From a virus (taxonomy: Duplodnaviria > Caudoviricetes), in IMG/VR virus record IMGVR_UViG_3300021138_000034, positions 1 to 55,124 of that record: a DNA stretch of 55,124 nucleotides; one strand, 5' to 3'. Below are positions 5,816 through 40,221 of the stretch, piece by piece (the first letter of the stretch is position 1; each line of letters begins with the position of its first letter). The notes beneath the pieces are model-generated. The model was not told the origin of the DNA. It saw only the letters and a program-made list of their open reading frames with translations, and made no database searches. The translations under genes were made by a program, and so were the position numbers.

Positions 5816-6274
5816 CTAGTTATAGTTTGGGTCTACTGCTGCTGGAGCAGCTGGAGTAGCATCTACAGCAGGAGCTGCAGCTGCTGGAGTAGAGTCTACA
5901 GCAGGAGCTGCAGTTGTTTGTGTTGGGATAGCTGAAGCTACAGTTTTGCTTCCATCTGCGTTGATAACAATTGCTTCGCCATTTTGACGAGCTTCTACAG
6001 CAAGGTCAGCTGCTGTTGTAGCCTTAGTGTCAATTGAAGCAAACGCTGCATTAATTTCGTCCATGCTGAGCTTGCCGTCATCCATAAAGCCGCGAGCAAG
6101 TTTTTCAACCACAGCTGCTACAGCTGTGATGCCGGCAACGCTCATTGCCTTAACTGTTGAGATGCCTGCTACAGCACCGGCACCAATAACGCCAAGAGCG
6201 CTTGCGGTAAAAGCTGCGACAATGCGCATAAGCACATTGAAGAAAAGCTTGTACGTGTTAATTAGTTTTATCAT
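5816..6274 (-). CDS. Putative holin
   Basis: Two N-terminal hydrophobic helices; directly upstream of endolysin; Ala/Pro-rich tail. Confidence 0.65.
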   Translation of the reverse strand: MIKLINTYKLFFNVLMRIVAAFTASALGVIGAGAVAGISTVKAMSVAGITAVAAVVEKLARGFMDDGKLSMDEINAAFASIDTKATTAADLAVEARQNGEAIVINADGSKTVASAIPTQTTAAPAVDSTPAAAAPAVDATPAAPAAVDPNYN

Positions 6275-14384: not shown

Positions 14385-14728
14385 CTATCCACGTGTTTAG
14401 CCGACCAGTCATGTAACCACTCCCAAAACTTCTCATTAATTCGCTTCCGCCGGGGGGTTAGCTTTACACCATTGATCTCGCCACCAAAGATTGAGTACCC
14501 GCCCATTGCCGTTTCACGACCGAAATCGAGCGGTACACCCAGAGTAATAACATGAGGCTCTTCGGTAGGCAGCTGAGGGTCTGGCGCTCCGTGACTTAGG
14601 ATTCGGTTCATCCTGGAACCGCACTCTCCGCAGTAGCCGTGGACCATCCTTCGACCGGTATCGCTGGTCTTAGTCCAGGCGCTAAGCATATCCCTGCGGA
14701 CTTTGCATTTAATACAGTAGGCATCCAT
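14375..14728 (-). CDS. Zn-ribbon protein (DUF5679-like)
   Basis: AYCIKCK...GRRMVHGYCGECGSRMNRI; start taken at ATG 14728. Confidence 0.7.
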   Translation of the reverse strand: MDAYCIKCKVRRDMLSAWTKTSDTGRRMVHGYCGECGSRMNRILSHGAPDPQLPTEEPHVITLGVPLDFGRETAMGGYSIFGGEINGVKLTPRRKRINEKFWEWLHDWSAKHVDRCC

Positions 14729-14742
14729 CGCACCTTCGTGTG

Positions 14743-14961
14743 TCACTTTAGCCCCTTCTTTATAGCTTTGATAGTGGGGCAAGGATATTTGGTAGGGCAC
14801 TCTACGCAGCAGGTTCCAGTTTTTGTTTTGTAAGGCTTATGTAATTCCACTACTGCACGGAGGGCAGCGACTGTTACTCCTACAACGCTGCAACTTTGGT
14901 CAAGTTCATCTAAATTTGCCAGCAGCTCTTCGTGTTTCACTCGCACTCCTCCTTTAGCCAT
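14743..14961 (-). CDS. Conserved phage protein (ALRAVVELHKP...C..C...YPCPTI family)
   Basis: Motif typical of actinophage small proteins; true start probably the internal GTG. Confidence 0.7.
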   Translation of the reverse strand: MAKGGVRVKHEELLANLDELDQSCSVVGVTVAALRAVVELHKPYKTKTGTCCVECPTKYPCPTIKAIKKGLK

Positions 14962-15596: not shown

Positions 15597-15698
15597 TGAC
15601 ACTTCTATACTCATTTGCGTATAGAAGTGTCAATGTATAGAAAAGGTAACCTTTGGGTACCTTTGGGTACCTTTAGCTAATTCCAGCGCGACACGCCG
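15597..15698. promoter_or_regulatory. Divergent control region: perfect 14-bp inverted repeat, three 10-bp-phased direct repeats, CGACACGCCG box
   Basis: TGACACTTCTATAC-N8-GTATAGAAGTGTCA (15597-15632); ACCTTT at 15649/15659/15669; CGACACGCCG 15689-15698. Confidence 0.7.
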
Positions 15699-15757: not shown

Positions 15758-15925
15758 ATGCCTACATATGACTTCACCTGCATCGGTTGTGATCTGACTG
15801 TCGAACGCTACTTTACGTTCCATGAAGAGCGCCGAGTTGAGTGCGATCAATGTGGGAATCAAATGCTCAAGTCGCTTACCGCTACACCTGCACATTTCAA
15901 AGGTGGCGGATGGGGTGGCCAGTAG
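15758..15925 (+). CDS. FmdB-family zinc-ribbon protein
   Basis: MPTYDFTC..C...C..CG..M.K...FKGGGW; TACTAT-N7-ATG. Confidence 0.88.
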   Translation: MPTYDFTCIGCDLTVERYFTFHEERRVECDQCGNQMLKSLTATPAHFKGGGWGGQ

Positions 15926-16062
15926 GCTACTGCTTAGCGCCGTATACCTTCAAAAAATTTTGATGCCCCCCGGCTGGGCTACTGTATAAGCCGTTATAGT
16001 CAAATCTTGCGCCGATTACCTGGAGGCCTTTGTAGATTTGTCGACATTTAACCGTGGGGGCT

Positions 16063-16078
16063 TCGAACATCTGTTCGA
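16063..16078. promoter_or_regulatory. LexA (SOS) box upstream of ardC
   Basis: TCGAAC-ATCT-GTTCGA matches the actinobacterial consensus TCGAAC-N4-GTTCGA. Confidence 0.8.
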
Positions 16079-16202
16079 GAGTGAGGGCGCTGGATTGTTA
16101 TCTAATCGTTATAAATCTACGCTCGCGCCTATTCGACACGGTGGGGGCGCTCGTGTACCTTGGACTTATAAGCGCAAAGGTTGCGCAAAGTTAGGGGTAA
16201 CT

Positions 16203-17075
16203 ATGAACCGCAGTGAAATCGAATCTCTAGTGACCAGCATGGTCACGGCACAATTACGCGAGGGGCGCGTCCCATGGCGTAAGACTTGGGCAAGCAAGGT
16301 CGGTCGACCAACCAACCTAGCCACCCGCCACCAGTACACGGGCGTTAATTGGCTCGTACTCTCTATGCAGGATGTCCCATCCCAACTATGGGTCACCTAT
16401 AAGCAAGCCCAAGCCCTAGGCGGTCAAGTCCGCAAGGGTAGCAAGGGTATCCACTGCATCAAGTACGGCACGATTGACACGGGCAAGGTCGACGCAAAGG
16501 GCAAGCCTATCCTCCGCCCATTCTTGAAGGCGTTCACCGTATTTAATGTCTCGCAGTGCGACGGGTTGACCATTCCCGCCGACTTGGTACCAGTCAAGCG
16601 CGAGACTGAGATATTGCCAGCGGTTGAGACTATGCTCGCCAACTATGCCAACCGCCCAACCGTTTACCATGGCGACTACGCAACCCCTCACTATAAGCCA
16701 ACCGAGGACACTATCCATATGCCCGAGGCTGGTCTATTCGATAGCGTCGAGGAGTACGCGACCGCGCTCGCTCATGAGATGACCCACTCGACTGGTCACC
16801 AGTCACGCGAGAATCGCGACATCATGAACCGATTCGGTTGCGAGGGATACGCCAAGGAGGAGCTAGTAGCCGAGATGGGTGCAGCCATGATGATGGTCGA
16901 GTATGGAATCGACATCGACCTCCCTAACACTGCCAGCTATCTCGCCAGCTGGTTGAAGGCTTTGAATGATGACCCAAGCCTCCTAGTTACCGCAAGTGCC
17001 AAGGCTCAGAAGGCAGTCGACCGAATGACTGGTAAGAAGGCAGTCGTCGAGGTCGAGGAGGAGGTGAGCGCCTAA
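16203..17075 (+). CDS. ardC: ArdC-family antirestriction protein (ssDNA-binding domain plus zincin-like domain)
   Basis: QLREGRVPWRKTW, YTGVN, WVTYKQAQALGGQVRKG, VFNVSQCDGL, HEMTHSTGH, YAKEELVAEMGA; start at ATG 16203 after AGGGG RBS. Confidence 0.95.
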   Translation: MNRSEIESLVTSMVTAQLREGRVPWRKTWASKVGRPTNLATRHQYTGVNWLVLSMQDVPSQLWVTYKQAQALGGQVRKGSKGIHCIKYGTIDTGKVDAKGKPILRPFLKAFTVFNVSQCDGLTIPADLVPVKRETEILPAVETMLANYANRPTVYHGDYATPHYKPTEDTIHMPEAGLFDSVEEYATALAHEMTHSTGHQSRENRDIMNRFGCEGYAKEELVAEMGAAMMMVEYGIDIDLPNTASYLASWLKALNDDPSLLVTASAKAQKAVDRMTGKKAVVEVEEEVSA

Positions 17076-17090: not shown

Positions 17091-17110
17091 GCGGGGGAGC
17101 GATCCCCCGC
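17091..17110 (+). terminator. GC hairpin after ardC (no U-tract)
   Basis: GCGGGGGA-GCGA-TCCCCCGC. Confidence 0.6.
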
Positions 17111-17114
17111 GAGA

Positions 17115-17233
17115 TGTTTGTGTTGGTGCCCACCCTCCCAGCATTAAAGGAATGGAATGGAGAGATTATAACGAAATCGTTATAAAACTCTCGGCGTGTC
17201 GCTATTGGTGCTGTCGTAGGTAGGCGGTATTGT
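17115..17233 (+). repeat. Intergenic cassette element copy 1 (with promoter)
   Basis: TGTTTGTGTT, stem GGTGC/GCATT with loop CCACCCTCCCA, GGAAT, GAGAGA, TTATAACGAAATCGTTATAA, CGGCGTGTCG, TGTCGTAG-N8-TATTGT. Confidence 0.9.
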
Positions 17234-17274
17234 TCTCGGTGTTGGCAGATAGCCAGCAGATTAGGGGTAATCAA

Positions 17275-17448
17275 ATGAGCGTTAAAAAAGCGCGTAGGTC
17301 GTTAGTAGCAGGTATCTTTATGGGCGCACTAGTTGCGCTAGGTATAAATGCGGGAGTTGGTTTCTTGACTACTCATCATCAGGTCGAGTACAACTGCCAC
17401 CAAGCAGATGTCGGTTGGGAGTGCGATACTAAGTGGGTGCATAACTAA
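17275..17448 (+). CDS. Small single-TM protein (57 aa)
   Basis: AGGGG RBS, ATG 17275; hydrophobic helix. Confidence 0.7.
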   Translation: MSVKKARRSLVAGIFMGALVALGINAGVGFLTTHHQVEYNCHQADVGWECDTKWVHN

Positions 17449-17558
17449 TGGAGTGTCGTTTCTGCCAGTCCGACGGTGGTTCAGATTACTATGACGGTTT
17501 CTGCCACCTGTGTTACAAAATCATCCATCCGAGGAAAGGTAAAACAAATGTCAGTTGA
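17448..17558 (+). CDS. Tiny CxxC/CxxC Zn-binding protein (36 aa)
   Basis: MECRFCQ...FCHLCY; start overlaps upstream stop. Confidence 0.55.
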   Translation: MECRFCQSDGGSDYYDGFCHLCYKIIHPRKGKTNVS

Positions 17559-17763
17559 TACAACAAGCCCAGTCTATCCAGATGTCCATGTCCAGCTCGT
17601 TGGTCAGGACGGTAATGCGTTTGCGATCATGGGACGCGTCCAGTCAGCCCTAGAAGATGCGGGCGCAACTAAAGAAGAAATCGAGCAATATCTAAACGAA
17701 TCCATGTCAGGCGATTACGATAATCTTCTTCGTACCGCTGTGAAATGGGTGAGCGTTTCCTAA
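17548..17763 (+). CDS. Conserved phage protein (LVGQDGNAFAIMG...SGDYDNLL family)
   Basis: Recognisable motif; GAAAGG RBS. Confidence 0.85.
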   Translation: MSVDTTSPVYPDVHVQLVGQDGNAFAIMGRVQSALEDAGATKEEIEQYLNESMSGDYDNLLRTAVKWVSVS

Positions 17764-17786
17764 AGCTTAGTTACCCCTAAGACGGC

Positions 17787-17818
17787 AGCCCGGCGGGGCT
17801 TCTCTCCTGCCGGGCTTT
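17787..17818 (+). terminator. Intrinsic terminator-like hairpin
   Basis: AGCCCGGCGGGG...CCTGCCGGGCT-TT. Confidence 0.65.
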
Positions 17819-17838
17819 GCTGTGTCCGCGCGAGAAAA

Positions 17839-17958
17839 TGTTTGTGTTGGAAGCCCGCCCACCCAGCTTCAGGAATATCTAGGAGAGAGATTGTTATCAG
17901 ATTGTTATAAATGTTCCTCGGCGTGTCGGTTTGCCTAGTCGGTGGCATGGCATACCAT
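17839..17958 (+). repeat. Intergenic cassette element copy 2
   Basis: Stem GAAGC/GCTTC, loop CCGCCCACCCA; TTGTTATCAGATTGTTATAA; CGGCGTGTCG; AGTCGGTG-N8-TACCAT. Confidence 0.9.
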
Positions 17959-18002
17959 TGAGGCAGATAGCAGACGGCTATCAGTTCGAGAAAGGAACGA
18001 TT

Positions 18003-18569
18003 ATGGGTCTAGATATGTATCTAGAGGCTCGTAAGTTCGTTTCGGGATACGATTTTGCTCCCGAAGCGGATAAGCATTTGTTTAATCAGTTGAGCGAGAT
18101 TAGCCCCGCTGCTCCAAGCGTGGACTCTCCCTCTTTCCAATTAACCGTAAATATCGGTTATTGGCGCAAGGCGAACGCTATTCACGGTTGGTTTGTCCGT
18201 GAAATTGGCGACGGCGTTGATGAGTGCCAAGAAATGTATGTTCGCCGTGAGAAGTTGGCTGAACTGAAGTCTGCTCTCTTATTGGCTCTTGGTGAAAAGC
18301 CAAGCGTTGTTGCTCCTGCCTCTCAGGGTTATTCCATTAACGGCAACCCTGCCGAGGTTATCGCTGAGACTATGGTTCTAGAGGCTCACCGTGCTGAACT
18401 CAATGATGAGAGTGATACCGACCCTCTCCGTCCCGTCGGTGGTTTCTTTTTCGGTGGTACTGAGAAAGATGAGTGGTACTACCGTCAATTAGCGAACACT
18501 CTCGACATTATCGAGAAGGCGCTCGCTCTCCCAAGTACTTGGGACATTTACTATCAGGCGAGTTGGTAA
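18003..18569 (+). CDS. Conserved phage protein (MGLDMYL...YWRKANAIHGWF family)
   Basis: Signature motifs plus GFFFG...Y and YYQASW; GAGAAAGG RBS. Confidence 0.88.
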   Translation: MGLDMYLEARKFVSGYDFAPEADKHLFNQLSEISPAAPSVDSPSFQLTVNIGYWRKANAIHGWFVREIGDGVDECQEMYVRREKLAELKSALLLALGEKPSVVAPASQGYSINGNPAEVIAETMVLEAHRAELNDESDTDPLRPVGGFFFGGTEKDEWYYRQLANTLDIIEKALALPSTWDIYYQASW

Positions 18570-18853
18570 TGGCTAACTCTCAGGCTCGTGCGCTCGTCGA
18601 AAGGCGAGCGCAGGAGTGGCACAAGCGCTATTACTCTCAGTTGAACGGTGCGACCCTTGCCTTTGTTTGTATGACCGAGGATGAGTGGGGCAACCCTGAT
18701 TTCCCTACCTTCTTAGCGAAGTTCCCTGACGGTAGGACTATCCAGCTCGAAGTCTCTCGTGACCCTGAAGGAAATGGTGGCGGATTTATTTTCGGCATGG
18801 ATTTCCCTGACATGGCTGACTTTGATAAGGAAAGCGGGTTCGATAAGTTGTAA
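18569..18853 (+). CDS. Hypothetical protein (DPEGNGGGF motif)
   Basis: ATG overlaps upstream TAA. Confidence 0.75.
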   Translation: MANSQARALVERRAQEWHKRYYSQLNGATLAFVCMTEDEWGNPDFPTFLAKFPDGRTIQLEVSRDPEGNGGGFIFGMDFPDMADFDKESGFDKL

Positions 18854-18921
18854 GCGATTGGGGTTGGGAGTGATAACCAGTAACGGCGCGAGTAGCCTCG
18901 CGCGACCCCTCGCTCGCAAAA

Positions 18922-19038
18922 TGTTTGTGTTGAGCCCACCCACCCAGCTCAAATAGGAATGGATCGAGAGAGATAACGAAATTGTTATAGAAGTCGCTCG
19001 GCGTGTCGGCTGGAGATGTCGGTGCTGTCGAGTATTGT
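18922..19038 (+). repeat. Intergenic cassette element copy 3
   Basis: Stem TTGAGC/GCTCAA, loop CCACCCACCCA; ATAACGAAATTGTTAT; CGGCGTGTCG; TGTCGGTG-N8-TATTGT. Confidence 0.9.
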
Positions 19039-19094
19039 GTGGCTGTTGGTCAAACGACCAGCCCTGCTGACGGCAGGTTCAGAAAGGAAGTCCT

Positions 19095-19508
19095 ATGGGC
19101 ATAGCCCTTAAAGTTCCCAGAGCCAAAGTTTTGGTGGCTCTCAAAGACAGGCTCGTTCAGATTGAGTCTGACTACAAGCACCAAGCCAAGTATGAGGCTG
19201 ATTTCATCAAGGCTCATAAGAAGTGGCAACAAGATGTAATCAAGTTGGCTACAACCGAAGGCAAAATCCTTCCTACCGAGTGTTCGGTCTATGTCCGAGC
19301 ATACGGCACTAGCAACCAAATCAGCCTTCAGTATGAAGTGAAGAAGGAAGATTTGCCTGAAGAACCGACCCGTGATTGGGAGTCGATTAGCGACTACAAG
19401 TATCGCGAGATGCGTGATGAAATAAGCAACGCTATCCGCGTGATCGAGATGTGCGAAGATGAGGTAATCCCAGCCTCCACTCTCAAACCTTATAGCCACT
19501 ATCTATAA
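19095..19508 (+). CDS. Hypothetical protein (137 aa)
   Basis: ORF track; AGAAAGG RBS. Confidence 0.8.
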   Translation: MGIALKVPRAKVLVALKDRLVQIESDYKHQAKYEADFIKAHKKWQQDVIKLATTEGKILPTECSVYVRAYGTSNQISLQYEVKKEDLPEEPTRDWESISDYKYREMRDEISNAIRVIEMCEDEVIPASTLKPYSHYL

Positions 19509-19517
19509 GAGATAGGA

Positions 19518-19552
19518 GAAGCCCTCGCCCTTAGGAAAGGCGGGGGCTTTTT
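19518..19552 (+). terminator. Intrinsic terminator
   Basis: AAGCCCTCGCC...GGCGGGGGCTT-TTT. Confidence 0.8.
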
Positions 19553-19577
19553 CGCGCCCGCGCGGAACGCGCGGAAT

Positions 19578-19706
19578 TGTTTGTGTTGGAAAGCCCACCC
19601 ACCCTGCTTTCTGGAATACATAGGAGAGAGATAGGGATTTATAACAAAATCGTTATAAAAGACTTACGGCGTGTCGCTATTGCCTGTCGGTCTGGACGTG
19701 TAATGT
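19578..19706 (+). repeat. Intergenic cassette element copy 4
   Basis: Stem GAAAGC/GCTTTC, loop CCACCCACCCT; TTTATAACAAAATCGTTATAAA; CGGCGTGTCG; TGTCGGTC-N8-TAATGT. Confidence 0.9.
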
Positions 19707-19754
19707 CTGCTCTGTCGGGGAAACTCTTCGACTGTTCGAGAAAGGAACAAGCGG

Positions 19755-20249
19755 ATGTCTAAAAAAGACACGCTGAAAATAAAAGAGGCTTGCCTTCTTT
19801 TATTGAGCCTTGCCGATAAGTGGCAAGACGGAAAACCACTAGACCACGAGGAGATTGACCTTCTCGCGTGGGCTATCGCTGAAAATCTACAAGTGCGCGA
19901 TTACGCTATGAGCGCGCTACTTATGGACAAATTCGAGTCCGTAACTCTGACGATTGACTTCTATGACGAACTCGTTTCGCTCGTATCTGACGAATACAAG
20001 CACTCAATTCTCTCTATCCTTGCCATTCTTTGGTATGGCGCTGAGGATGACGAACTATCTGCCCGTAACCTGTCTATGGCTCTAGCCCTAAAGCCTGATT
20101 ATAAACTCGCGTTACTGGTTCAGAGAATCCACTCTGCTAACTGGCCTCACGAGGTTGTGCAAAATATGTTTAACGAACTCCACCCTACGGTGCGCGCCAG
20201 CGTGACCGAGGGCGGAGAGTATGCGGAAATGCTGGTTTCACAGGGCTAA
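19755..20249 (+). CDS. DUF4192-like helical protein
   Basis: LQVRD...W..G....AL...PDYKLA.L pattern of the actinobacterial DUF4192 C-terminus; GAGAAAGG RBS. Confidence 0.7.
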   Translation: MSKKDTLKIKEACLLLLSLADKWQDGKPLDHEEIDLLAWAIAENLQVRDYAMSALLMDKFESVTLTIDFYDELVSLVSDEYKHSILSILAILWYGAEDDELSARNLSMALALKPDYKLALLVQRIHSANWPHEVVQNMFNELHPTVRASVTEGGEYAEMLVSQG

Positions 20250-20264
20250 GTAGCCAGCGTTAGA

Positions 20265-20297
20265 GAAGCCCCCCAGCTCGTCACTGGGGGGTTTTTC
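20265..20297 (+). terminator. Intrinsic terminator
   Basis: AGCCCCCCAG-N7-CTGGGGGGTT-TTT. Confidence 0.8.
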
Positions 20298-20335
20298 ATT
20301 TGCCCTTGATCGCGCGAACGTGGGTCGCGCGAGAT

Positions 20336-20453
20336 TGTTTGTGTTGGTTGCCCGCCCACCCAGCAACTAGGAATTGAATGGAGAGACATAACGAAATTGT
20401 TATAAATGGGTACCGGCGTGTCGTGACCGGTCGCGGGCCGGATGTGGCAAGAT
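20336..20453 (+). repeat. Intergenic cassette element copy 5
   Basis: Stem TGGTTGC/GCAACTA, loop CCGCCCACCCA; ATAACGAAATTGTTAT; CGGCGTGTCG; weak -10 CAAGAT at the same spacing. Confidence 0.9.
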
Positions 20454-20478
20454 GTGTTTACTCGAGAAAGGAGTTACC

Positions 20479-20784
20479 GTGACTGGTACAGAAGGCATTC
20501 AGATAGTCGATGCGCAGCATCACTATGCAGTTCTTGAAGTTAAGAAGGAACTGAAGTTTAAATTCGATGGTCATGACTATGAGTGGACGGCATTCATTGG
20601 AGAACGTGGCTATGTCGAATATTGGAAGAGAGATGGCATATCAATTGAAGGTGGCGACACTGACGTTGAGTACCAGGTCCTGGACATGGACATGGGAGCG
20701 CTTTGGGAGGAAATCACTAATCGCAATTGCCAGCATAACCGGGCATGCGAATGTATGACATGTGGTGAGGTTCTCTATCACTGA
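20479..20784 (+). CDS. Hypothetical acidic protein with C-terminal Cys/His cluster
   Basis: GTG after GAGAAAGGAG. Confidence 0.75.
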   Translation: MTGTEGIQIVDAQHHYAVLEVKKELKFKFDGHDYEWTAFIGERGYVEYWKRDGISIEGGDTDVEYQVLDMDMGALWEEITNRNCQHNRACECMTCGEVLYH

Positions 20785-20807
20785 TGGGTCCGTCAGCCCT
20801 ATCATCG

Positions 20808-20833
20808 AGGCCCCCGGGAAACCGGGGGTCTTT
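20808..20833 (+). terminator. Intrinsic terminator
   Basis: AGGCCCCCGG-GAAA-CCGGGGGTCT-TT. Confidence 0.8.
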
Positions 20834-20846
20834 CGATTTTCGGAAT

Positions 20847-20974
20847 TGTTTGTGTTGGCCCTCCCACCCAGCATTTAAGGAATAGGAATAGAGAGAGATA
20901 CCGGCTTTATAACGAAATTGTTATAAACCATGGCCGGCGTGTCGCGATTGATTGTCCGTGGCCTCGTGTAAGTT
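20847..20974 (+). repeat. Intergenic cassette element copy 6
   Basis: Loop CCTCCCACCCA; TTTATAACGAAATTGTTATAAA; CGGCGTGTCG; TGTCCGTG-N8-TAAGTT. Confidence 0.9.
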
Positions 20975-21012
20975 GTGCCTTGCCGGAAAGGTTCCGCGCA
21001 AGAAAGGTAAAC

Positions 21013-21228
21013 ATGTCTAAAGACGAAGACATAAAGACGGAAGAGGTGACGTACCGGTTCATTACCGGCACGTGGTATTCCATCACCATTCCTAAAGAGA
21101 GAGAGGGGCAACCCGGCTACTCTCCTGAAGAGATATACAGCGCTTACTTTAATGAGGGCGCGCCTGATGACGTTAAGGTCTCAGAGGATGAAGTGGACCA
21201 TGTCTGGGAGGATGATTTAAATGCCTAG
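21013..21228 (+). CDS. Small acidic protein
   Basis: AGAAAGG RBS, ATG 21013. Confidence 0.75.
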   Translation: MSKDEDIKTEEVTYRFITGTWYSITIPKEREGQPGYSPEEIYSAYFNEGAPDDVKVSEDEVDHVWEDDLNA

Positions 21229-21430
21229 ATTCGACGTTAAGATGGTCATCGAATTCTCCGGTGAGCTCGAAGCTGATACAGCTGCCGAAGCTGAAGAAAA
21301 GGCCTGGACCTCCTGGGGTGACACGGCTGCTGCTGATATTACTTACGACGGTGTCTATTCAATTGAGGTAGACGAGATTGAAGAAGACGAAGAGGAAGAA
21401 GAGGACGATGAAGATTCAGACAAAAGCTAG
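21221..21430 (+). CDS. Small very acidic protein
   Basis: EADTAAEAEEKA motif, poly-E/D tail. Confidence 0.8.
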   Translation: MPRFDVKMVIEFSGELEADTAAEAEEKAWTSWGDTAAADITYDGVYSIEVDEIEEDEEEEEDDEDSDKS

Positions 21431-21453
21431 ATGCGTCGAATGCTCCCGCGTTT

Positions 21454-21678
21454 TTGACCTCCTTGATGAGACAGATGCTGCAGAATGGGCATACGGTCAT
21501 GACTGTGAAAGCTAAGACAGTGAGTGAGGCTCCCGGCAAGGGGGCCTCACGCCATGAGCACTATTGGATCTGTCAAGACATTCCCGGTTACTACAGCTGC
21601 AAATGCGGATTACAGAGATACTGGGATCGAAACAGGAGGCAGTACGTACTGTTCCTTGAAGACAATAGCGCCTCGTAA
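21454..21678 (+). CDS. Small His/Cys protein (HEH.W.C...C.CG)
   Basis: ORF track; start uncertain. Confidence 0.55.
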   Translation: MTSLMRQMLQNGHTVMTVKAKTVSEAPGKGASRHEHYWICQDIPGYYSCKCGLQRYWDRNRRQYVLFLEDNSAS

Positions 21679-21694
21679 GGGGCGCTATTTTTTT
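21664..21694 (+). terminator. Intrinsic terminator
   Basis: AATAGCGCCTC-GTAA-GGGGCGCTATT-TTTTT. Confidence 0.85.
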
Positions 21695-21721
21695 ATTGGA
21701 GTTTGCCTACACCCACCAAAA

Positions 21722-21862
21722 GTTTGTGTTGAAGCCCTCCCACCCAGCTTCTTATGGAATATATATAAGAGAGACGATATCGAACACGTGTTCGCCGAAC
21801 GTTTGTTCGAGAGACACGCCGGTGGCCCGGGTAGTTGACTCTGCAGCTGCCGGTGGTAAGTT
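21722..21862 (+). repeat. Intergenic cassette element copy 7 (variant with tandem SOS boxes and sigma-A promoter)
   Basis: Stem GAAGC/GCTTC, loop CCTCCCACCCA; palindrome replaced by CGAAC-N4-GTTCG x2; inverted GACACGCCG; TTGACT-N16-TAAGTT. Confidence 0.85.
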
Positions 21863-22604: not shown

Positions 22605-22701
22605 ACCGCTGGAGCGTCTTAACCTTTCTCAGCTCCAGCGGTCAGAGGCAGTAACCGTCATTACCGCCTCCGGTCTGGCAGCGAGACACCTTGCTCGCTG
22701 C
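22605..22701 (+). ncRNA. Candidate three-hairpin small RNA with anti-Shine-Dalgarno loop
   Basis: ACCGCTGGAGC/GCTCCAGCGGT around GTCTTAACCTTTCTCA; GAGGCAGTAA/TTACCGCCTC; GCAGCGAG/CTCGCTGC; immediately downstream of a consensus promoter. Confidence 0.6.
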
Positions 22702-22706
22702 AAGAT

Positions 22707-22783
22707 TGTTTGTGTTGACCCTCCCACCCCTTATCCCTTCGGGATAGGGTGATGGAGAGAGAGAAAGTCAAGGCGACACGCCG
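22707..22783 (+). repeat. Intergenic cassette element copy 8 (upstream module, degenerate)
   Basis: TGTTTGTGTTG, CCTCCCACCCC, GGAGAGAGAGA, inverted CGACACGCCG. Confidence 0.8.
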
Positions 22784-23009
22784 GAAGAGGAGGCAGCAGG
22801 TTCACGATCACTAAGTGATAGCAGTCACAGAGTGACTGGCAGGCTCTAAGAGCCAGTCAGTTAGGCTACTGCTCAGATAGTGAGACGGTGAGTCGGCTGT
22901 ACCCCCAGATTTACAGGACCTCCGGTCCAACTCCTATCTGATAACTCCGTGGAGAGAGATAGGAGAGAGAGAGACACTCTCAGCTATCCTCCTGGAATTG
23001 TCGACATTT

Positions 23010-23025
23010 TGTTCCACGTGAAACA
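23010..23025. promoter_or_regulatory. parS centromere site
   Basis: TGTTCCACGTGAAACA matches the parS consensus TGTTNCACGTGAAACA. Confidence 0.8.
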
Positions 23026-23094
23026 TTTATAACGAAATTGTTATCAAACCCCACCGGCGTGTCGTGAATAAATGTCGGTGCCTACTGGTTAAAT
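23026..23094 (+). repeat. Downstream (promoter) module of the cassette element
   Basis: TTTATAACGAAATTGTTAT; CGGCGTGTCG; TGTCGGTG-N8-TTAAAT. Confidence 0.85.
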
Positions 23095-25689: not shown

Positions 25690-27732
25690 TCATTTAACGT
25701 CCCTAATCATTTTTACTTCGCAAGCATCTGTGGTGCAGTAAGCCTCACCGATGGCGTCCATCGCTAGACCTTCGTACACTCCACTTAGATCAATTGGAAA
25801 TAGCTTCATTGTGTAATCTTCATACTGTTTTGCTGTGATCTCTGAGTATGGCATTTGCGGGTAGGTCCCGTTATCCATCGGCAAGAAGGACACGGTCTTG
25901 AGCTGCCCGTCGAACATATGCAAAACTTTACCAATATCTGTTTTCTCTGTTTCTGGATTAAATGATACGGTCACAGATACCGAGTTGTCAGACCAATAGC
26001 GTTGAGCTGTGGCAGCTAGCGCTACCTTTTCGTAGATGGATACTTCCTTCTCCGAACGACGGCCACCTCCCTTGATTGGGAAGAACACGACTGAGGTTGT
26101 CTCAGGCGATTCAGCTGCCGGCTCGACTGTATATCCTGCCATCTTGAATAAAGGCAATACTGGGTCGCTGTTACCAAATCGAACAGCGCGTAGGAAGTAC
26201 TGTCCACCTGGCATCCAGTGAACTCCTGGCGATTCGCCAGCGAGGATACTTACAGTTCCGGATGGTTTGATGGTTGTTGTCTTGATTGATTCGCGGATGC
26301 CAAGCCATTCAGAATACGATTTATCATACGACTGAATGATGGAGTATCCCTTATCCATCCACTCACGTAAGGTTGGTAGTCCATGAATGTCAGCAAAGTT
26401 GGCAACGCCCGACATAGAGGTTCCGATGCGTCGATTACGCTGCATGATGGCGTTAGTCTCTTCCCAGTGAGTGGGGAGGAGTGTGACAGTCTTCGCATAT
26501 AGGTAGGCGAACTTAAGAGTACGGAGGTAATCCTCAAGATTGTCGTGGCGATTCAAATAGGTTTCTACTAACGTACAGCACTCGTACGATTCGAGTGATT
26601 GCTCTGCACATGGGTTATATCCTACAGCTCGCCAGTCTTTGTTATTGATTGGATCAGCAAGGCGACCATACTGCCGAGTGACGTCCATCCAGATAACGCC
26701 CGGCTCACCGTTGTCAGCGATTCGTTCGATGATTGGAGTTAGGTTAGAGCCTACGTTTACCTCTACTGAGTTGTTAGACATCCAACCCCAGCCAGAGTCT
26801 TTACCGGTTGGGTCATACTTGTTACGCTTTGGATTCTTCTTGAAGTCCTTGAGGTTGAGGAATTCCTCATCGTCTAACCGGCCCATGAGTAGCTCAGCTG
26901 AGCGACGCACGTTTCCGCTCACAACACAAACTCCGATGAGGTTGCCGATGTCAGCGATATCTGTACGGGTTAGCTGTCCGCTTTCTCGTCCTTTGAAGAT
27001 TCGGGTGATGTGCTTGTGTAATTTGATAAGTGGTTCAGGGCCTGCAGCAGTTCCTCCGAAAGTCCGAATAGGTTCTCCTGCTTTTCGAATTTCAGAGTAG
27101 TCGAACGTTGGTAGCGCTTGGTCAGGCTTGAGGTAAGCGTTAAGAAGCTGTGCAGTGGATTCGACCCAGCCCTCTCGGGTGTCGGGAATGATTGTGGCAT
27201 CGGTACTCTCTTTCGGCTTATAAATTGTAAAGCCTTTATCAGCACCTTTATCATCGAACCCAACGCCTACTCCCAGCATGGAAGCTTCCATGAGGAATGC
27301 AAAAGGCTTTGCTGGGTCGTTCTTGTTCATACTTCCGGTGGATACGAAAGCGCAATTCTGCAAGGCAGCGGAGTTGCGCTGCTCATTAACTAGTGGGGTA
27401 CCCATAACCCATAGCCCACGTCCCGGTGGAGTCCACTTTAGATTGAACAGGCGATCGTAAGCTTCCTTGGCAGAAGCTTGAGCTTTGGCGTCTGACCATG
27501 GGAGGCGGTTAGACTTGGCGTGGTCCTTCTGTAGGGAGTACATGCCGTTGATTACTCGCTCGCAGACTTCGGCCCAAGTTTCCTTGGTGCCGTCTGGCTT
27601 CAGCCGACTGTACGTTCGGAGGAAAATAATCTCTCCCATACTGTTGCCAGCTGCATCACGGTTTCCGAAAGGCGCCTTCTTGGTCTTGTAGCCAGATACG
27701 AACTCATCGGCCAAACGGAATGTGATTGCCAT
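25690..27732 (-). CDS. nrdJ: Class II (B12-dependent, RTPR-type) ribonucleotide reductase
   Basis: RTYSR, PPGRGLW, NCAF, GNVRRSA, NPCAEQ, TTIKPSGTVS, C-terminal CTTDAC. Confidence 0.95.
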   Translation of the reverse strand: MAITFRLADEFVSGYKTKKAPFGNRDAAGNSMGEIIFLRTYSRLKPDGTKETWAEVCERVINGMYSLQKDHAKSNRLPWSDAKAQASAKEAYDRLFNLKWTPPGRGLWVMGTPLVNEQRNSAALQNCAFVSTGSMNKNDPAKPFAFLMEASMLGVGVGFDDKGADKGFTIYKPKESTDATIIPDTREGWVESTAQLLNAYLKPDQALPTFDYSEIRKAGEPIRTFGGTAAGPEPLIKLHKHITRIFKGRESGQLTRTDIADIGNLIGVCVVSGNVRRSAELLMGRLDDEEFLNLKDFKKNPKRNKYDPTGKDSGWGWMSNNSVEVNVGSNLTPIIERIADNGEPGVIWMDVTRQYGRLADPINNKDWRAVGYNPCAEQSLESYECCTLVETYLNRHDNLEDYLRTLKFAYLYAKTVTLLPTHWEETNAIMQRNRRIGTSMSGVANFADIHGLPTLREWMDKGYSIIQSYDKSYSEWLGIRESIKTTTIKPSGTVSILAGESPGVHWMPGGQYFLRAVRFGNSDPVLPLFKMAGYTVEPAAESPETTSVVFFPIKGGGRRSEKEVSIYEKVALAATAQRYWSDNSVSVTVSFNPETEKTDIGKVLHMFDGQLKTVSFLPMDNGTYPQMPYSEITAKQYEDYTMKLFPIDLSGVYEGLAMDAIGEAYCTTDACEVKMIRDVK

Positions 27733-27859: not shown

Positions 27860-29308
27860 CTAGTCTTCGGTCAAATCTTTCAAAATGCGAGTAGTCTCAA
27901 CCTCATCTATAGGTTTTGGAAGCTCATTTAATACCTGAGCACGGTCTCCAAACATCCTCGTCATCCATCCAGCTCCGGCATTTTTAGCCTCAACAGTCAT
28001 CTTAATGCTGCTGCTTCCGGACAACATATCGTTGATTTTTTGCGTCAGATCAATAAGGCGATCGAGCTCTTTTGATACGTTTGGATCAGGGTATCCACCA
28101 TTGACTTGTTCGGTAAAAGCAGCGAAAGCAACTCGGTTTGACTGCAATTCTAATATCGCAGTCATGTATGCCTGAAGCTGTTCACGGGTCTTTAATTCAA
28201 TTGGAAAACTGTAAGCACAGGAGTTGTTTGCCTTAAAAGCTGGGCAATTGGCGGCGATAAAACAGGTGTTGCATTGACGGACGCTGGCGCCAGAGCTCTC
28301 GACGACAGGCACGTCTTTGATGGTGCCATCTGGGTCAAAAACCTTCTGAGTGGACATGTTAAAAACCGGCAAAACCGTCATTTCTGACGGGTCTCGGTCC
28401 ATTAATTTTCCTACCTCTAATGGCTTGTTATCAGGTACGACGAGGTCTTTTTCCGCGTAATCATCACTCGCTGGGTCTTCGAAGTTATCATATAAGTTCG
28501 CCATTTTGCTCAATTTCTCCTCAAGTCGTTGGAATGACCAGATGGCCAACTTGCAATTTTCTTTTTCGTCGTCTCCTACAATCTTATCGAAATCTAAGCC
28601 GATAGATTCGTAGATGGCCTTGTAGCGAGGACGAGCTTGAGCCTTCATAGACTTTGGATAACGAGCCAGCTTTACCCCATCCCATACGATGGTCTCACCG
28701 TGGGTCATAGGGGATATCCAAGCAAGGCTGTGTGCGGTCTCTACAGGCACCTGTCGCAGGTTATCTGGACGAGCGCAGGCGATGGCATGAAACCTTGTGC
28801 CTGACTGCGTTGTCAGGCTTCTGGTTACCCCAGCCAGCCAGGTGAATTCTTCGATACTTTCACCGGTCAACCCGATGTCTAGATAAGTATCGGCTAGGCG
28901 CCTAAGCTCGCCTTGACCTAAGTTTGGATTCCAGATCGGAAGGAACTTACCGGGTGGGCATTGAGCCCAACAGGTCTTCCTCTGTTCTTCGATGAAATCC
29001 GGGCTAAGTAGTGGGTGAGTCATTTCCGAAAACATAGCGATTCGGTCTATGTTGTCAGCTATAAACTCTTCATACTCAGCAGCTAGGCTTTCAAACTCCA
29101 GCCTATCTAGCGCTATGTTACGGGGAACGCCGGCATGGACATACAACAAAGTGTCTTCTGGAAAGTAATTTTTAAGTAAATACTTTTTGGTTTTGGGCAG
29201 CCCACGCTGCTTCAATCGCCAGTAGCTGATGCTCATATGCTTGGCATTCATAGATTCCAAAATTAGGCGATTTGATGGAACTTCTGAGCCCATAAATACT
29301 ATGTTCAA
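27860..29308 (-). CDS. Divergent tRNA-guanine-transglycosylase/DpdA-like barrel protein with C-terminal Cys cluster
   Basis: Order of motifs SYW, YEEFI, FLPIW, RFHAI, TAHSLAW...HG resembles phage TGT-like proteins; CNTC...CP...C. Confidence 0.5.
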   Translation of the reverse strand: MNIVFMGSEVPSNRLILESMNAKHMSISYWRLKQRGLPKTKKYLLKNYFPEDTLLYVHAGVPRNIALDRLEFESLAAEYEEFIADNIDRIAMFSEMTHPLLSPDFIEEQRKTCWAQCPPGKFLPIWNPNLGQGELRRLADTYLDIGLTGESIEEFTWLAGVTRSLTTQSGTRFHAIACARPDNLRQVPVETAHSLAWISPMTHGETIVWDGVKLARYPKSMKAQARPRYKAIYESIGLDFDKIVGDDEKENCKLAIWSFQRLEEKLSKMANLYDNFEDPASDDYAEKDLVVPDNKPLEVGKLMDRDPSEMTVLPVFNMSTQKVFDPDGTIKDVPVVESSGASVRQCNTCFIAANCPAFKANNSCAYSFPIELKTREQLQAYMTAILELQSNRVAFAAFTEQVNGGYPDPNVSKELDRLIDLTQKINDMLSGSSSIKMTVEAKNAGAGWMTRMFGDRAQVLNELPKPIDEVETTRILKDLTED

Positions 29309-38408: not shown

Positions 38409-38722
38409 TCCTGGAGGTAGTGGCGCATTTCCAAAAAGTCGTCTTCTTGCAACATCACATAGTCCGCACCGTTGAGGTGGAACCCTAGGACGGGCATGCG
38501 GGAAACCGTTATGGCTTCTTTAACGATCTTCTCTAGAACTGCTGCCTTGATGGTCACGGTAGCTTTGCCGGTCCACTTATGCTCGATTAGCAAATCGTCT
38601 GACCTAACATCGCCTTTTGCGCTCCAGAAAGCCCCACTTGCGACCTGACGTCGCCCTCCAACTTTCTTTGCGAGCCGATCTTCATGTTTCCTCGACTCTA
38701 TTTGTCCTTTACTCCTCGTCAT
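38297..38722 (-). CDS. Second resolvase-like PD-(D/E)XK nuclease
   Basis: HE.RLAK..GG....ASGA....KGDV.....IEHK.T. Confidence 0.8.
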   Translation of the reverse strand: MTRSKGQIESRKHEDRLAKKVGGRRQVASGAFWSAKGDVRSDDLLIEHKWTGKATVTIKAAVLEKIVKEAITVSRMPVLGFHLNGADYVMLQEDDFLEMRHYLQECTCSKTKDQKSGVTSPNAVGKIPSFGFPQETSPSTD

Positions 38723-39773
38723 CTGTTACCGAAACTCCGATACCAGCCCTAACGACGTCTAGAACATCCCTCTCCAAAGTTTCACGCAAGTCAATTTCCT
38801 CTTTAATGGAAACGACCATGGCATCCGCACCCAACCACTTACGCTCTCGGTAGTTGTAGTATGCCCCTCCACGACGAATAATGCCGTTAAGGATACCTAG
38901 GGCAACAATCTCTTTAGCGAAATCAAATTCGCCTTTAGCAATGGAACCGCCATCACGAAAGTAAAAGTCAACATATGCCACCATTGAAGGTGGGGCTGAC
39001 TTGTTCTTTAAAACTCGAGCTTTAATTGTTTGGCCTACACGAGTTGGATCGCTCTTTGTGCCAACCTCAATCCAACCATCGCGCTTAATCTCTAAGCGAG
39101 TGAAATACCCATAATCTTTACCTTGGCCACCGGGTGTTGTGCGTGGGTCTCCATACATAACACCAATCTTTGAACGCCATTGATTAATAATAATTCCGAC
39201 AAAAGGGCGCTCTGTTTCAGTCAACGAACGTTTTGACGCTAATCCGACCTTACGGAAAAACGTATTAGTAAGTAGCGCGCCACGTCCAACAGTGAACTCG
39301 CCCATTTCCTTTTCGTCTTCTGCCCCTGGAACTAAAGCAGGAAGCGAATCAAGAACAATGCAGTCCACTTCTTTAGTTGCAGTAAGTCGAATAACAGCTT
39401 CGTAAGCTTCTTCCATAATGTTGGTGTCAATTACATAAACGCGGGAAGCGTCTACGCCACACATCTCTGCATATTCAGGTACCCATTGCTCGGCAGCTAC
39501 CCAGACAGTTGTAAAATCAGGATCAAGCTTTTGATTAGCTGCAATAGTTTTTAGTGCAACAGCGGTCTTACCGTTGCTGGCTTCACCAATAATTTCATTC
39601 CATTGGTTAGTTGGCCATCCGCCACCTAAAACAACATCTAAAGCCAGTGAACCAGTAGTAATACGGCCCATCAAATCTTTTCGAATGTCACTACCAAGAA
39701 CGATGCTGCCTTCGCCCATCTTCTTGTTAAGGTCGCTAATAGTCTTGTCAAACCCAAATGATTTTTTCGCCAT
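38709..39773 (-). CDS. recA: RecA recombinase
   Basis: TGSLALD..LGGG.P, GEASNGKT, LDSL.ALVP, INQ.R.KIGVMYGDP.TTPGG; leaderless TAGTAT-N6-ATG. Confidence 0.97.
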   Translation of the reverse strand: MAKKSFGFDKTISDLNKKMGEGSIVLGSDIRKDLMGRITTGSLALDVVLGGGWPTNQWNEIIGEASNGKTAVALKTIAANQKLDPDFTTVWVAAEQWVPEYAEMCGVDASRVYVIDTNIMEEAYEAVIRLTATKEVDCIVLDSLPALVPGAEDEKEMGEFTVGRGALLTNTFFRKVGLASKRSLTETERPFVGIIINQWRSKIGVMYGDPRTTPGGQGKDYGYFTRLEIKRDGWIEVGTKSDPTRVGQTIKARVLKNKSAPPSMVAYVDFYFRDGGSIAKGEFDFAKEIVALGILNGIIRRGGAYYNYRERKWLGADAMVVSIKEEIDLRETLERDVLDVVRAGIGVSVTDDEE

Positions 39774-39789
39774 AGCAGGATACTAGCAC

Positions 39790-40221
39790 CTAAATATGGC
39801 CGATGATAACTCCCGGATTCCATCCGCCTGTAGGCACCTGAACAGCTGCTTTTGTAGGCCCTTGGGAAGAACCAGCGCCTCTAATTCCCGACATTCCGCT
39901 GCCGGCTTGAACTAGGGGGTATCCGCAATCGTAACAACGCTTTGCTTCTACTGATCCGTTTTGAGTCGCAATGCTTCCAACAGTGGCGTAATTATTTCCT
40001 CTACACCCTGGGCAACTTGTGTCAGTTCTTGAACTCTGAGGAATAAGTCTTCCGTCTAACTGATTTGGCACAGCCTGCGTCATAGGTTGCATAGCTGCAG
40101 GGTTGTTAAGCGGAGGATAAGGCGATTGATATTGCTGGGGTGGGGTTGGTTGTTGGAACTGTGGGGTCGCTGGAGCAGCTTGACCACCAAGTTTCTGAGC
40201 CCACCAATTATTGCTGCTCAA
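39790..40221 (-). CDS. Pro/Gln-rich Zn-ribbon protein
   Basis: CPGC..NY...RCYDCGYP. Confidence 0.75.
   Translation of the reverse strand: MSSNNWWAQKLGGQAAPATPQFQQPTPPQQYQSPYPPLNNPAAMQPMTQAVPNQLDGRLIPQSSRTDTSCPGCRGNNYATVGSIATQNGSVEAKRCYDCGYPLVQAGSGMSGIRGAGSSQGPTKAAVQVPTGGWNPGVIIGHI

Follow-up and report, generated by a model that had tools for sequence, protein, structure and literature searches.

The DNA analysed here is a stretch of 55,124 nt from a tailed virus (hereafter the window; IMG/VR record IMGVR_UViG_3300021138_000034, Caudoviricetes), an incomplete virus record (about 57 %). Between 15.7 and 25.5 kb it carries a block of small genes on the plus strand, most of which have no Pfam or PHROG match, and the spaces between these early genes hold eight copies of a cassette of about 50 nt, which is the subject of this work. 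Read 5′ to 3′, the cassette consists of an A/T-rich run, the 10-mer GTTTGTGTTG (block A), the C-tract CCCNCCCNCCC (block B), block C, which is GGAAT in the window copies and GGGA(A/G)T in its family form, and GAGAGAG (block D). In six copies (1–5 and 7) a stem of 5–9 bp, differing in sequence from copy to copy, surrounds an 11-nt C-rich loop, and no T-run follows the stem. The original prediction had placed this covarying hairpin at 17121..21755; that range takes in copies 1–7, and a further copy lies beyond it. The eight copies are:

17116..17165, plus strand: copy 1, with GTTTGTGTTG at 17116-17125, a hairpin at 17123-17147 (TTGGTGC, loop CCACCCTCCCA, GCATTAA), GGAAT at 17149-17153 and GAGAG at 17160-17165.
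17840..17888, plus strand: copy 2, with block A at 17840-17849, a hairpin at 17850-17870 (GAAGC, loop CCGCCCACCCA, GCTTC), GGAAT at 17872-17876 and GAGAG at 17883-17888.
18923..18971, plus strand: copy 3, with block A at 18923-18932, a hairpin at 18930-18952 (TTGAGC, loop CCACCCACCCA, GCTCAA), GGAAT at 18956-18960 and GAGAG at 18966-18971.
19579..19629, plus strand: copy 4, with block A at 19579-19588, a hairpin at 19586-19614 (core GAAAGC, loop CCACCCACCCT, GCTTTC, extendable), GGAAT at 19613-19617 and GAGAG at 19624-19629.
20337..20386, plus strand: copy 5, with block A at 20337-20346, a hairpin at 20344-20370 (TTGGTTGC, loop CCGCCCACCCA, GCAACTAG, including G.T pairing), GGAAT at 20370-20374 and GAGAG at 20381-20386.
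20848..20895, plus strand: copy 6, with block A at 20848-20857, the C-tract at 20860-20869 and a canonical stem of GC/GC only; an alternative 7-bp helix, GTGTTGG/CCAGCAT, has a 9-nt loop.
21722..21773, plus strand: copy 7, with block A at 21722-21731, a hairpin at 21731-21751 (GAAGC, loop CCTCCCACCCA, GCTTC), GGAAT at 21756-21760 and GAGAG at 21768-21773; on its 3′ side lies a different type of operator (CGAACAnnTGTTCG, GACACGCCG).
22708..22760, plus strand: copy 8, of the hairpin-less class, with the C-tract at 22720-22729 unpaired, a strong second hairpin at 22729-22749 (CCTTATCCC, TTC, GGGATAGGG) whose stem uses the last C-run, and GAGAG at 22755-22760.

In the window, CCNCCCNCCC comes within 8 nt after GTTTGTGTTG at eight places, all of them on the plus strand. 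CCNCCCNCCC itself has eight matches against 0.84 expected, a number reached in 0/100 shuffles, and with both strands searched the C-tract pattern was absent from the window outside the cassette copies. The distance from TGTTTGTGTT to GGAAT is 24, 23, 24, 25, 24, 22 and 25 nt in copies 1–7, which agrees with the 22-25 nt given in the original prediction. The weak pairing that it had reported for copies 6 and 8 was seen as well, copy 8 having no C-loop hairpin at all.

The stems of the original prediction were re-read in the window as listed above (with TGGTTGC/GCAACTA for copy 5). Its loop of fixed length, CC(A/G/T)CCC(A/T)CCC(A/T), is present at 11 nt in window copies 1–5 and 7, but the length does not hold in relatives, where loops are 10–12 nt. 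Seven of the eight window copies can form a helix of at least 5 bp. When the 3′ flanks were deranged in all 14833 ways, 0.2 % of the arrangements gave six such copies and none gave seven. We then used an alignment of 49 distinct hairpin-type sequences (A1), in which two registers were allowed. A helix of at least 5 bp was found in 36 of them, compared with a mean of 4.6 and a maximum of 12 in 1000 shuffles of the 3′ flanks. These 36 stems enclose an 11-nt loop in 22 cases and a 10-nt loop in 14. A1 contains 19 different stems, and each of helix positions 2–4 is filled by three or four types of Watson-Crick pair. Thirteen of the 49 sequences have no 5-bp helix; L063 and L078 miss it by a single mismatch, and L037, L053 and L118 lack any 3′ arm. 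In a second alignment (A2; 28 sequences in the 11-nt register, evaluated with a pair-counting tool), 89.2 % of cells were paired against 69.5 % in shuffles (0/500), and the covariation score was 0.647 against 0.255 (0/500). Pairing fell to 29-49 % when the partner was slid, and two pairs were changed on both sides in 14 and 15 sequences. The stem also varies in front of homologous genes: it is GAAAGC/GCTTTC before the window gene at 19755, GGTCAG/CTGACT before its homologue in the complete relative G003, and GGTAC/GTACC in L106. Because the stems differ before homologous genes of different phages, the pairing is selected and not inherited by chance. These sequence comparisons confirm the hairpin as a genuine, selection-maintained part of the cassette, an observation that is well supported. 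They also strongly support selection on the pairing and not on a fixed double-stranded operator sequence, so that the earlier argument from compensatory change to a single-stranded fold is borne out in the larger alignment.

To place the window copies in a family, we scanned IMG/VR for the two-block pattern. The scan gave 112 stretches, with 80 listed loci from 34 contigs, many of them about 96 kb long. After removal of duplicates 136 pattern hits were left, of which the 115 with block D within 45 nt are regarded as the family. An insert between blocks A and B is present in 56/115, and the other 59/115 are hairpin-less; among the raw hits, 71/136 have no hairpin. The predicted C-loop hairpin is an optional module of the cassette. 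In the hairpin-less class the C-tract directly follows GTTTGTGTTG(G/A); the final C-run of the tract is paired to the GGG in block C, enclosing a variable second hairpin. In the hairpin-bearing class it is a different CCC that pairs with this GGG, and the C-tract therefore stays largely unpaired in every class. The spacings A–B, B–C and C–D are all variable; TTG and GGGA lie from about 16 to more than 35 nt apart, and 16 to 49 nt separate block B from GAGAG. The interval between GGGA and GAGAG contains odd short echoes (GTTGTTG, TATGTATG, GGGAAT-GGGAAG), and C is nearly absent. Variable spacing absorbed by optional hairpins and conserved unpaired blocks is the pattern of a folded single strand.

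More distant phages of about 96 kb contain a third class, where GTTTGTGTTG and an inverted copy close a three-hairpin structure of 90-115 nt. We located such pairs at 14670-14751, 15981-16070 and 18878-19018 in G002, at 38603-38683 and 39758-39862 in G005, and at loci L023, L024, L029, L030, L044, L049, L088, L095 and L108. The stretches they enclose (70-130 nt) form either one long hairpin or a three-hairpin structure with the C-tract unpaired on the 5′ side. In hairpin-less loci (e.g. L036, L046, L059, L073), CCCC-ATT is invariably accompanied by GGGAAT, and CCCC-GTT by GGGAGT. This co-change is no simple helix compensation and may reflect two sub-families or a common partner. Rfam searches of window positions 15.5-25.6 kb and 14 related loci returned three plus one weak matches, all well under the gathering scores and all away from the cassettes, and no match for the inverted-pair class either. 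Upstream hairpins of 6 bp or more that end no further than 8 nt from block A were found in 43/115 family members against 31/115 at a control position, and a tight coupling between block A and an upstream hairpin was dropped.

The surroundings of the window copies follow a regular order. Every copy is preceded by a GC hairpin, and five of the eight also by a hairpin with a T-run. The features that frame the copies are:

16038-17075, plus strand: ArdC-like anti-restriction protein, the first large gene of the early block, with ArdC N-terminal and zincin-like metallopeptidase domains.
17094..17113, plus strand: GC hairpin after the ArdC-like gene, just 5′ of copy 1.
19558-19574, 20310-20332, 20807-20832, 21664-21689 and 22678-22701, plus strand: equivalent terminator-like hairpins before other copies.
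17166..17200, plus strand: operator/promoter block of copy 1, a palindrome TTATAAC-N-GTTATA with TGnTATAAA (extended -10-like) and then CGGCGTGTC at 17192-17200.

Copies 2–6 share the downstream layout of copy 1, in which the palindrome TTATAAC-N6-GTTATAA encloses TGnTATAAA and CGGCGTGTC comes next. Palindrome sites are located at 17166-17184, 19639-19657, 20907-20925, 16093-16116 and 23030-23050, and the palindrome also precedes the ArdC-like gene, there without a cassette. The 9-mer CGGCGTGTC occurs 11 times in the window, in both orientations, against 0.25 expected (15690, 17192, 17919, 18999, 19667, 20414, 20935, 21813, 22775, 23055 and 23864); the second of these positions belongs to copy 1 and the next five to copies 2–6, where it has a fixed place 7-9 nt after TATAAA. 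It probably serves as an operator; failing that, it would mark where the early transcripts begin. The operator block is followed by a leader of 60-130 nt and then by a ribosome-binding site. In relatives, GAGAGAG is followed by other palindromes (TGTGA-N6-TCACA, TTATCCACA, GACACGCCG, CGAACAnnTGTTCG), and many relatives have a canonical TTGACA-N17/18-TAnnnn promoter about 30-60 nt downstream of the cassette. As that promoter sits downstream, the cassette itself is not the TTGACA promoter. A sigma-70 scan found no promoter-like hexamer pair in any cassette. The terminator scan never picked the C-loop hairpin, only hairpins 5′ of GTTTGTGTTG; with 5-6 bp, a loop of 10-12 nt and no T-run, the C-loop hairpin is not built as an intrinsic terminator, which has a G+C-rich stem, a short loop and a T-run immediately behind it.

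The cassette is absent at the first plus-strand units (15.7-16.2 kb) and at the last plus-strand terminator (25.52-25.56 kb), and it is confined to the junctions between tandem early units. Across 105 copies, coding potential downstream lies on the same strand in 73 and on the opposite strand in 27, and upstream in 67 and 37, respectively. The order of the early genes is 17931, 18473, 19095, 19755 in the window, and in G003 the homologues follow as 19755, 19095, 17931, 18473. These homologous genes share 31-45 % amino-acid identity, while the cassette blocks are letter-identical.

Other repeated words lie in the same regions. GGTACCTTTGG is repeated three times in tandem at 15641-15675, in the divergent region between a Dam-like methylase gene and the first plus-strand gene. 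GGCTACTGC is found at 15925-15933 and 22864-22872 on the plus strand and at 14630-14638 on the minus strand, and the palindrome TTGTCGACA at 16036-16049 and 22997-23010. Both words are shared by the window's two long non-coding regulatory regions, and in relatives they reappear 3′ of the hairpin-less cassettes.

The relatives are freshwater myoviruses of about 96 kb, and the complete relative G003 has genes for sheath, baseplate, portal and terminase. Among replication and nucleotide genes we identified PolA, a DnaB-type helicase, a primase, RecA, a class II ribonucleotide reductase and a DpdA-like protein; the phage also encodes a Cas4-like exonuclease and an SNF2 helicase. A 482-aa protein at 27860-29308 (minus strand) with a PHROG match to queuine tRNA-ribosyltransferase lies beside the class II ribonucleotide reductase gene at 25690-27732 (minus strand), and the pair may be a sign of 7-deazaguanine modification of the phage DNA. 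Neither the window nor the complete relatives yielded a T7-type RNA polymerase, a sigma factor or a giant virion polymerase. A search for PF00940 in five complete relatives gave no match, a weak negative as the positive control matched nowhere either. The 845-aa open reading frame (ORF) at 52049-54583 had no Pfam or PHROG match and, being S/T-rich, does not look like a polymerase from its sequence. The largest ORF in the complete relative encodes 1200 aa, and the large ORFs are structural. In the reading favoured below, this lineage would use the host RNA polymerase.

A blastn search of the isolated-phage collection with positions 16.0-23.2 kb gave zero matches, and the best matches of the DNA polymerase are Streptomyces phages at only about 38 % identity. 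Our scan of bacterial and archaeal species genomes resulted in 75 stretches, two of which are family members on the same 7.3 kb contig, binned to a Nanopelagicaceae metagenome-assembled genome; the remaining ones look like chance matches. The metagenomes listed as carrying the DNA come from lakes or freshwater. Based on these indirect grounds (polymerase matches, Nanopelagicaceae contig, habitat), the host is probably a freshwater actinobacterium.

The cassette is neither promoter nor terminator and lies only between tandem units, and we therefore read it as punctuation or an insulator. The reading that we favour tentatively, and that may well be wrong, is that of a polar insulator read as a single strand, probably as read-through RNA, which would present the C-tract to a partner. 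The cassette separates consecutive early transcription units that would be regulated separately, standing 3′ of the terminator of one and 5′ of the operators and promoter of the next. The strand that is read would most probably be the RNA of transcripts escaping the upstream terminator. In such RNA the covarying stem would hold the C-rich tract unpaired in a loop of 10-12 nt, and in hairpin-less copies the tract would be unpaired just 5′ of the second hairpin and so equally exposed. A sequence-specific partner, either a protein or a G-rich RNA, could bind the exposed C-tract, and the escaped transcripts would then be stopped, cut or marked before the next unit, giving polar insulation. That the strand is RNA and not DNA, that a partner exists and that its effect is insulating are the parts we infer.

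Several observations weigh against this reading. T-run terminators stand before five of the eight window copies, and little RNA may reach those copies. The L014-like conserved copy type faces a gene on the opposite strand. The folding energy of the copies is no better than that of shuffles (z from -1.0 to +1.9), copy 8 excepted, and no copy-specific complementarity was seen between the C-loop and the downstream purine tract (4.30 vs 4.26; 74/300 shuffles at least as high); a pseudoknot or anti-Shine-Dalgarno pairing of the loop with this tract was rejected on the same figures. The remaining objections concern the choice of strand. The original prediction had taken G-T pairs as a mark of the plus strand as the folded one, and this did not hold: helix gain was equal whether G.T or A.C was allowed (293 vs 295 and 643 vs 610), and internal mismatches G.T:A.C were 18:10 in the element hairpins compared with 62:5 in the upstream terminators. 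The wobble-pair method works on those terminators and gives no support for either strand of the element. Stem positions 1-5 are nearly all Watson-Crick. Finally, GTTTGTGTTG(G) occurs also as a solitary word on the same strand genome-wide, with 12 plus and 1 minus copies in G003, 10 plus and 1 minus in G004, and 1 plus and 9 minus in G001.

The last two observations count in favour of the rival that survives best, which we consider possible but doubtful. Here the signal would be strand-specific at the DNA level, GTTTGTGTTG(G) being a polar word similar to Chi, stoperator, nick or priming sites and the hairpin being read on transient single-stranded DNA. The solitary 10-mers are over-represented and strand-biased in all three genomes. 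In G003 outside the early cluster, six lie on the plus and one on the minus strand, where the mean for 210 words of the same composition is 0.28, and the 10-mer ranks top of all G/T-only 10-mers there; four of the six plus copies are antisense inside minus-strand genes of the structural module. The window has solitary copies at 5916-5925 (plus) and 26922-26931 (minus). As for the lone copy on the opposite strand, the window has it within the ribonucleotide reductase gene, and G003 within a 677-aa ORF whose size and position match. The sites are not homologous, as protein similarity was seen in only 1 pair of 23 flanks and orthology was not supported, which suggests selection for presence and polarity and not inheritance. 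The solitary strand-biased word and the inverted pairs, which close multi-hairpin structures in G002 and G005, hint at a better fit with a DNA-level word than with an RNA signal, and the phage encodes proteins that handle DNA (RecA, the Cas4-like exonuclease, the SNF2 helicase, the primase and the DnaB-type helicase). However, a 5-bp stem around an 11-nt loop folds weakly in either chemistry, with about -3 to -5 kcal/mol as DNA; at -3 to -4.8 kcal/mol the element hairpins would not extrude, so the weak fold rules out extrusion from duplex DNA and suggests protein-assisted folding. Moreover, the C-tract is never found apart from the cassette, and 8-10 copies placed exactly between transcription units and mostly co-oriented fit transcription better than replication. 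The genes outside the early cluster are mostly on the minus strand, and a coding-composition bias may add to the strand bias of the word.

It is unlikely that the cassette is an upstream early-promoter module, in which the blocks would bind an activator, an alternative sigma factor or RNA polymerase and the hairpins would be tolerated insertions. Possible elements can be named: the TTG(A/G)CC end of block A as a -35-like box, TAnnnn after GGGA(A/G), and a start within GAGAGAG. A gene follows each copy, operators come directly after the cassette, and block A ends in TTGACC or TTGGCC after an A/T-rich stretch (AAAT in 32, AATT in 12 and AAAA in 9 of 115). A few short copies (L032, L038) have a 19-nt gap to TATATA and then AGAGAG, and GGGATAGGGT contains TAGGGT 6-7 nt 5′ of GAGAG. 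There is also a precedent in the promoter-early stem-loop (PeSL) elements, whose stem-loops can lie between or over the -35 and -10 boxes (PMC2839356). However, the variable TTG–GGGA and B–GAGAG distances given above are incompatible with a fixed spacer, and about a dozen copies carry GTTGTTG and have no A at the would-be -10. Host-type promoters exist separately on the downstream side, no cassette accompanies the first promoter of the gene block, a double-stranded site leaves the compensatory stem changes unexplained, and the L014-type copy with its opposite-strand gene does not fit this module either. Fixed-spacer promoters (sigma-70, sigma-B/F-like GTTT...GGGWAW, extracytoplasmic function GGAAT...GTT and sigma-54) were compared by eye with the known consensus sequences and rejected because the spacing is variable.

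Somewhat less likely still is a two-part punctuation system of an actinobacterial phage lineage that would be new to the literature, with the polar 11-mer GTTTGTGTTGG read genome-wide on one strand and coupled in the early region to a displayed CCCNCCCNCCC. The latter would serve a dedicated single-strand-binding factor of phage or host, or act as a 6C-like seed, and the whole would form a new kind of factor-dependent, orientation-specific transcription insulator or terminator between early genes.

We give little credence to a regulatory RNA seed, in which the C-rich loop would pair with G-rich ribosome-binding sites, in cis at the early gene that follows or in trans on mRNAs of host or phage, in the manner of the actinobacterial 6C small RNA. 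The C-tract is looped or unpaired in every class, many downstream genes of relatives have G-rich ribosome-binding sites (e.g. AAAGGGGGC) and the host is probably actinobacterial; the 6C report describes C-rich loops that bind G-rich ribosome-binding sites without a chaperone in high-GC Gram-positives (PMC6486639). Yet no promoter or terminator bounds a small RNA here, Rfam gave no 6C match at E up to 1, C-runs broken every three bases pair poorly with GGGGG, and the ribosome-binding sites of the window are GAAAGGA and not G-runs. Furthermore, no complementary G-rich site was found in the window with both strands searched, and there is no covariation with the adjacent purine tract. Very improbable, finally, is a PeSL-like recombination scaffold whose blocks persist by mediating early-gene shuffling and whose hairpin has no reader of its own: the window and G003 have their early genes in different orders but share letter-identical blocks, and PeSLs are reported to drive such shuffling (PMC2839356, PMC4122927), but recombination homology neither needs nor maintains compensatory changes around an invariant loop, and shuffling could be a side effect of any conserved repeat.

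Returning to the insulator reading, among known concepts the PeSL cassettes of T4-type phages come closest. A PeSL is described as a sigma-70 consensus promoter with a G/C stem-loop that itself terminates (PMC2839356). Both are small composite repeats before small genes of unassigned function in a plastic early region, here with eight copies in the 15.7-25.5 kb block, and in both the gene order differs among relatives while the repeats are conserved. Stem-loops, terminator function and promoter proximity are likewise combined, according to the two reports (PMC2839356, PMC4122927). In contrast to PeSLs, the repeat described here contains no recognisable promoter; the spacing of its blocks is variable, and host-type promoters lie downstream of it. 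Its hairpin covaries, has no T-run and carries an invariant C-rich loop of 10-12 nt, the terminators are separate and upstream, and the 10-mer occurs also as a solitary, strand-biased word.

The nut sites of lambdoid phages (boxA + boxB) and the put RNAs of HK022 are found a single time in each operon, where they directly follow the promoter and precede the terminators. Like them, the cassette has a linear box followed by a hairpin with variable stem and conserved loop, and the proposed reading of nascent RNA acting on termination is similar; it differs in being repeated at every unit and placed after the terminator, and there is no sequence similarity and no Rfam match. The hairpin promoters of phage N4 have a stem of 5-7 bp and a 3-nt loop and require a virion RNA polymerase of ~3500 aa. 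They resemble the cassette as hairpins with conserved flanks before early genes near one genome end, but the cassette loops are 10-12 nt and the largest ORF of the complete relative falls far below that size. Polar genomic words are known as Chi sites, the stoperators of mycobacteriophage L5 and T5-type nick sites. The 10-11-mer GTTTGTGTTG(G) is similarly over-represented, asymmetric and strand-biased, with positions that are not conserved; however, its bias opposes the direction of late-gene transcription, and a structured C-rich module is attached to it only in the early region. Integron attC sites have an integrase nearby and RYYYAAC...GTTRRRY core sites bracketing the fold, whereas no recombinase domain was found among the 78 window ORFs scanned against Pfam, the flanks have a different form and each unit has its own promoter.

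The resemblance to 6C small RNAs would be a functional analogy only. C-rich loops on hairpins and a probably actinobacterial setting are common to both, and the 6C loops are seeds for G-rich partners, but 6C is a free-standing small-RNA gene and has two loops with uninterrupted C-runs (PMC6486639). The cassette has no Rfam 6C match and lacks its own promoter and terminator, and its C-runs are broken every three bases. The three G-runs that the original prediction noted on the opposite strand do not amount to a general hint at a G-quadruplex: a G-quadruplex or i-motif takes four runs of at least three G (or C) within reach, copies 1–7 of the window have only three runs, and a fourth run is present in copy 8 and in many relatives.

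For a cassette with a covarying stem around an invariant C-rich loop, the literature that we searched offered only analogues, and we regard the element as a variant of phage intergenic punctuation that has not been described so far. Unlike the known terminator/promoter punctuation of T4-type phages, its conserved parts are neither promoter nor terminator. It is also abundant, with at least 115 distinct copies in uncultured lake phages that probably infect abundant freshwater Actinobacteria. The strand bias of the 11-mer may indicate that these phages carry a polar signal across the whole genome. Should there be a reader factor, the cassette would provide a compact and portable insulator with orientation specificity, and it would give a handle on the timing of early genes.

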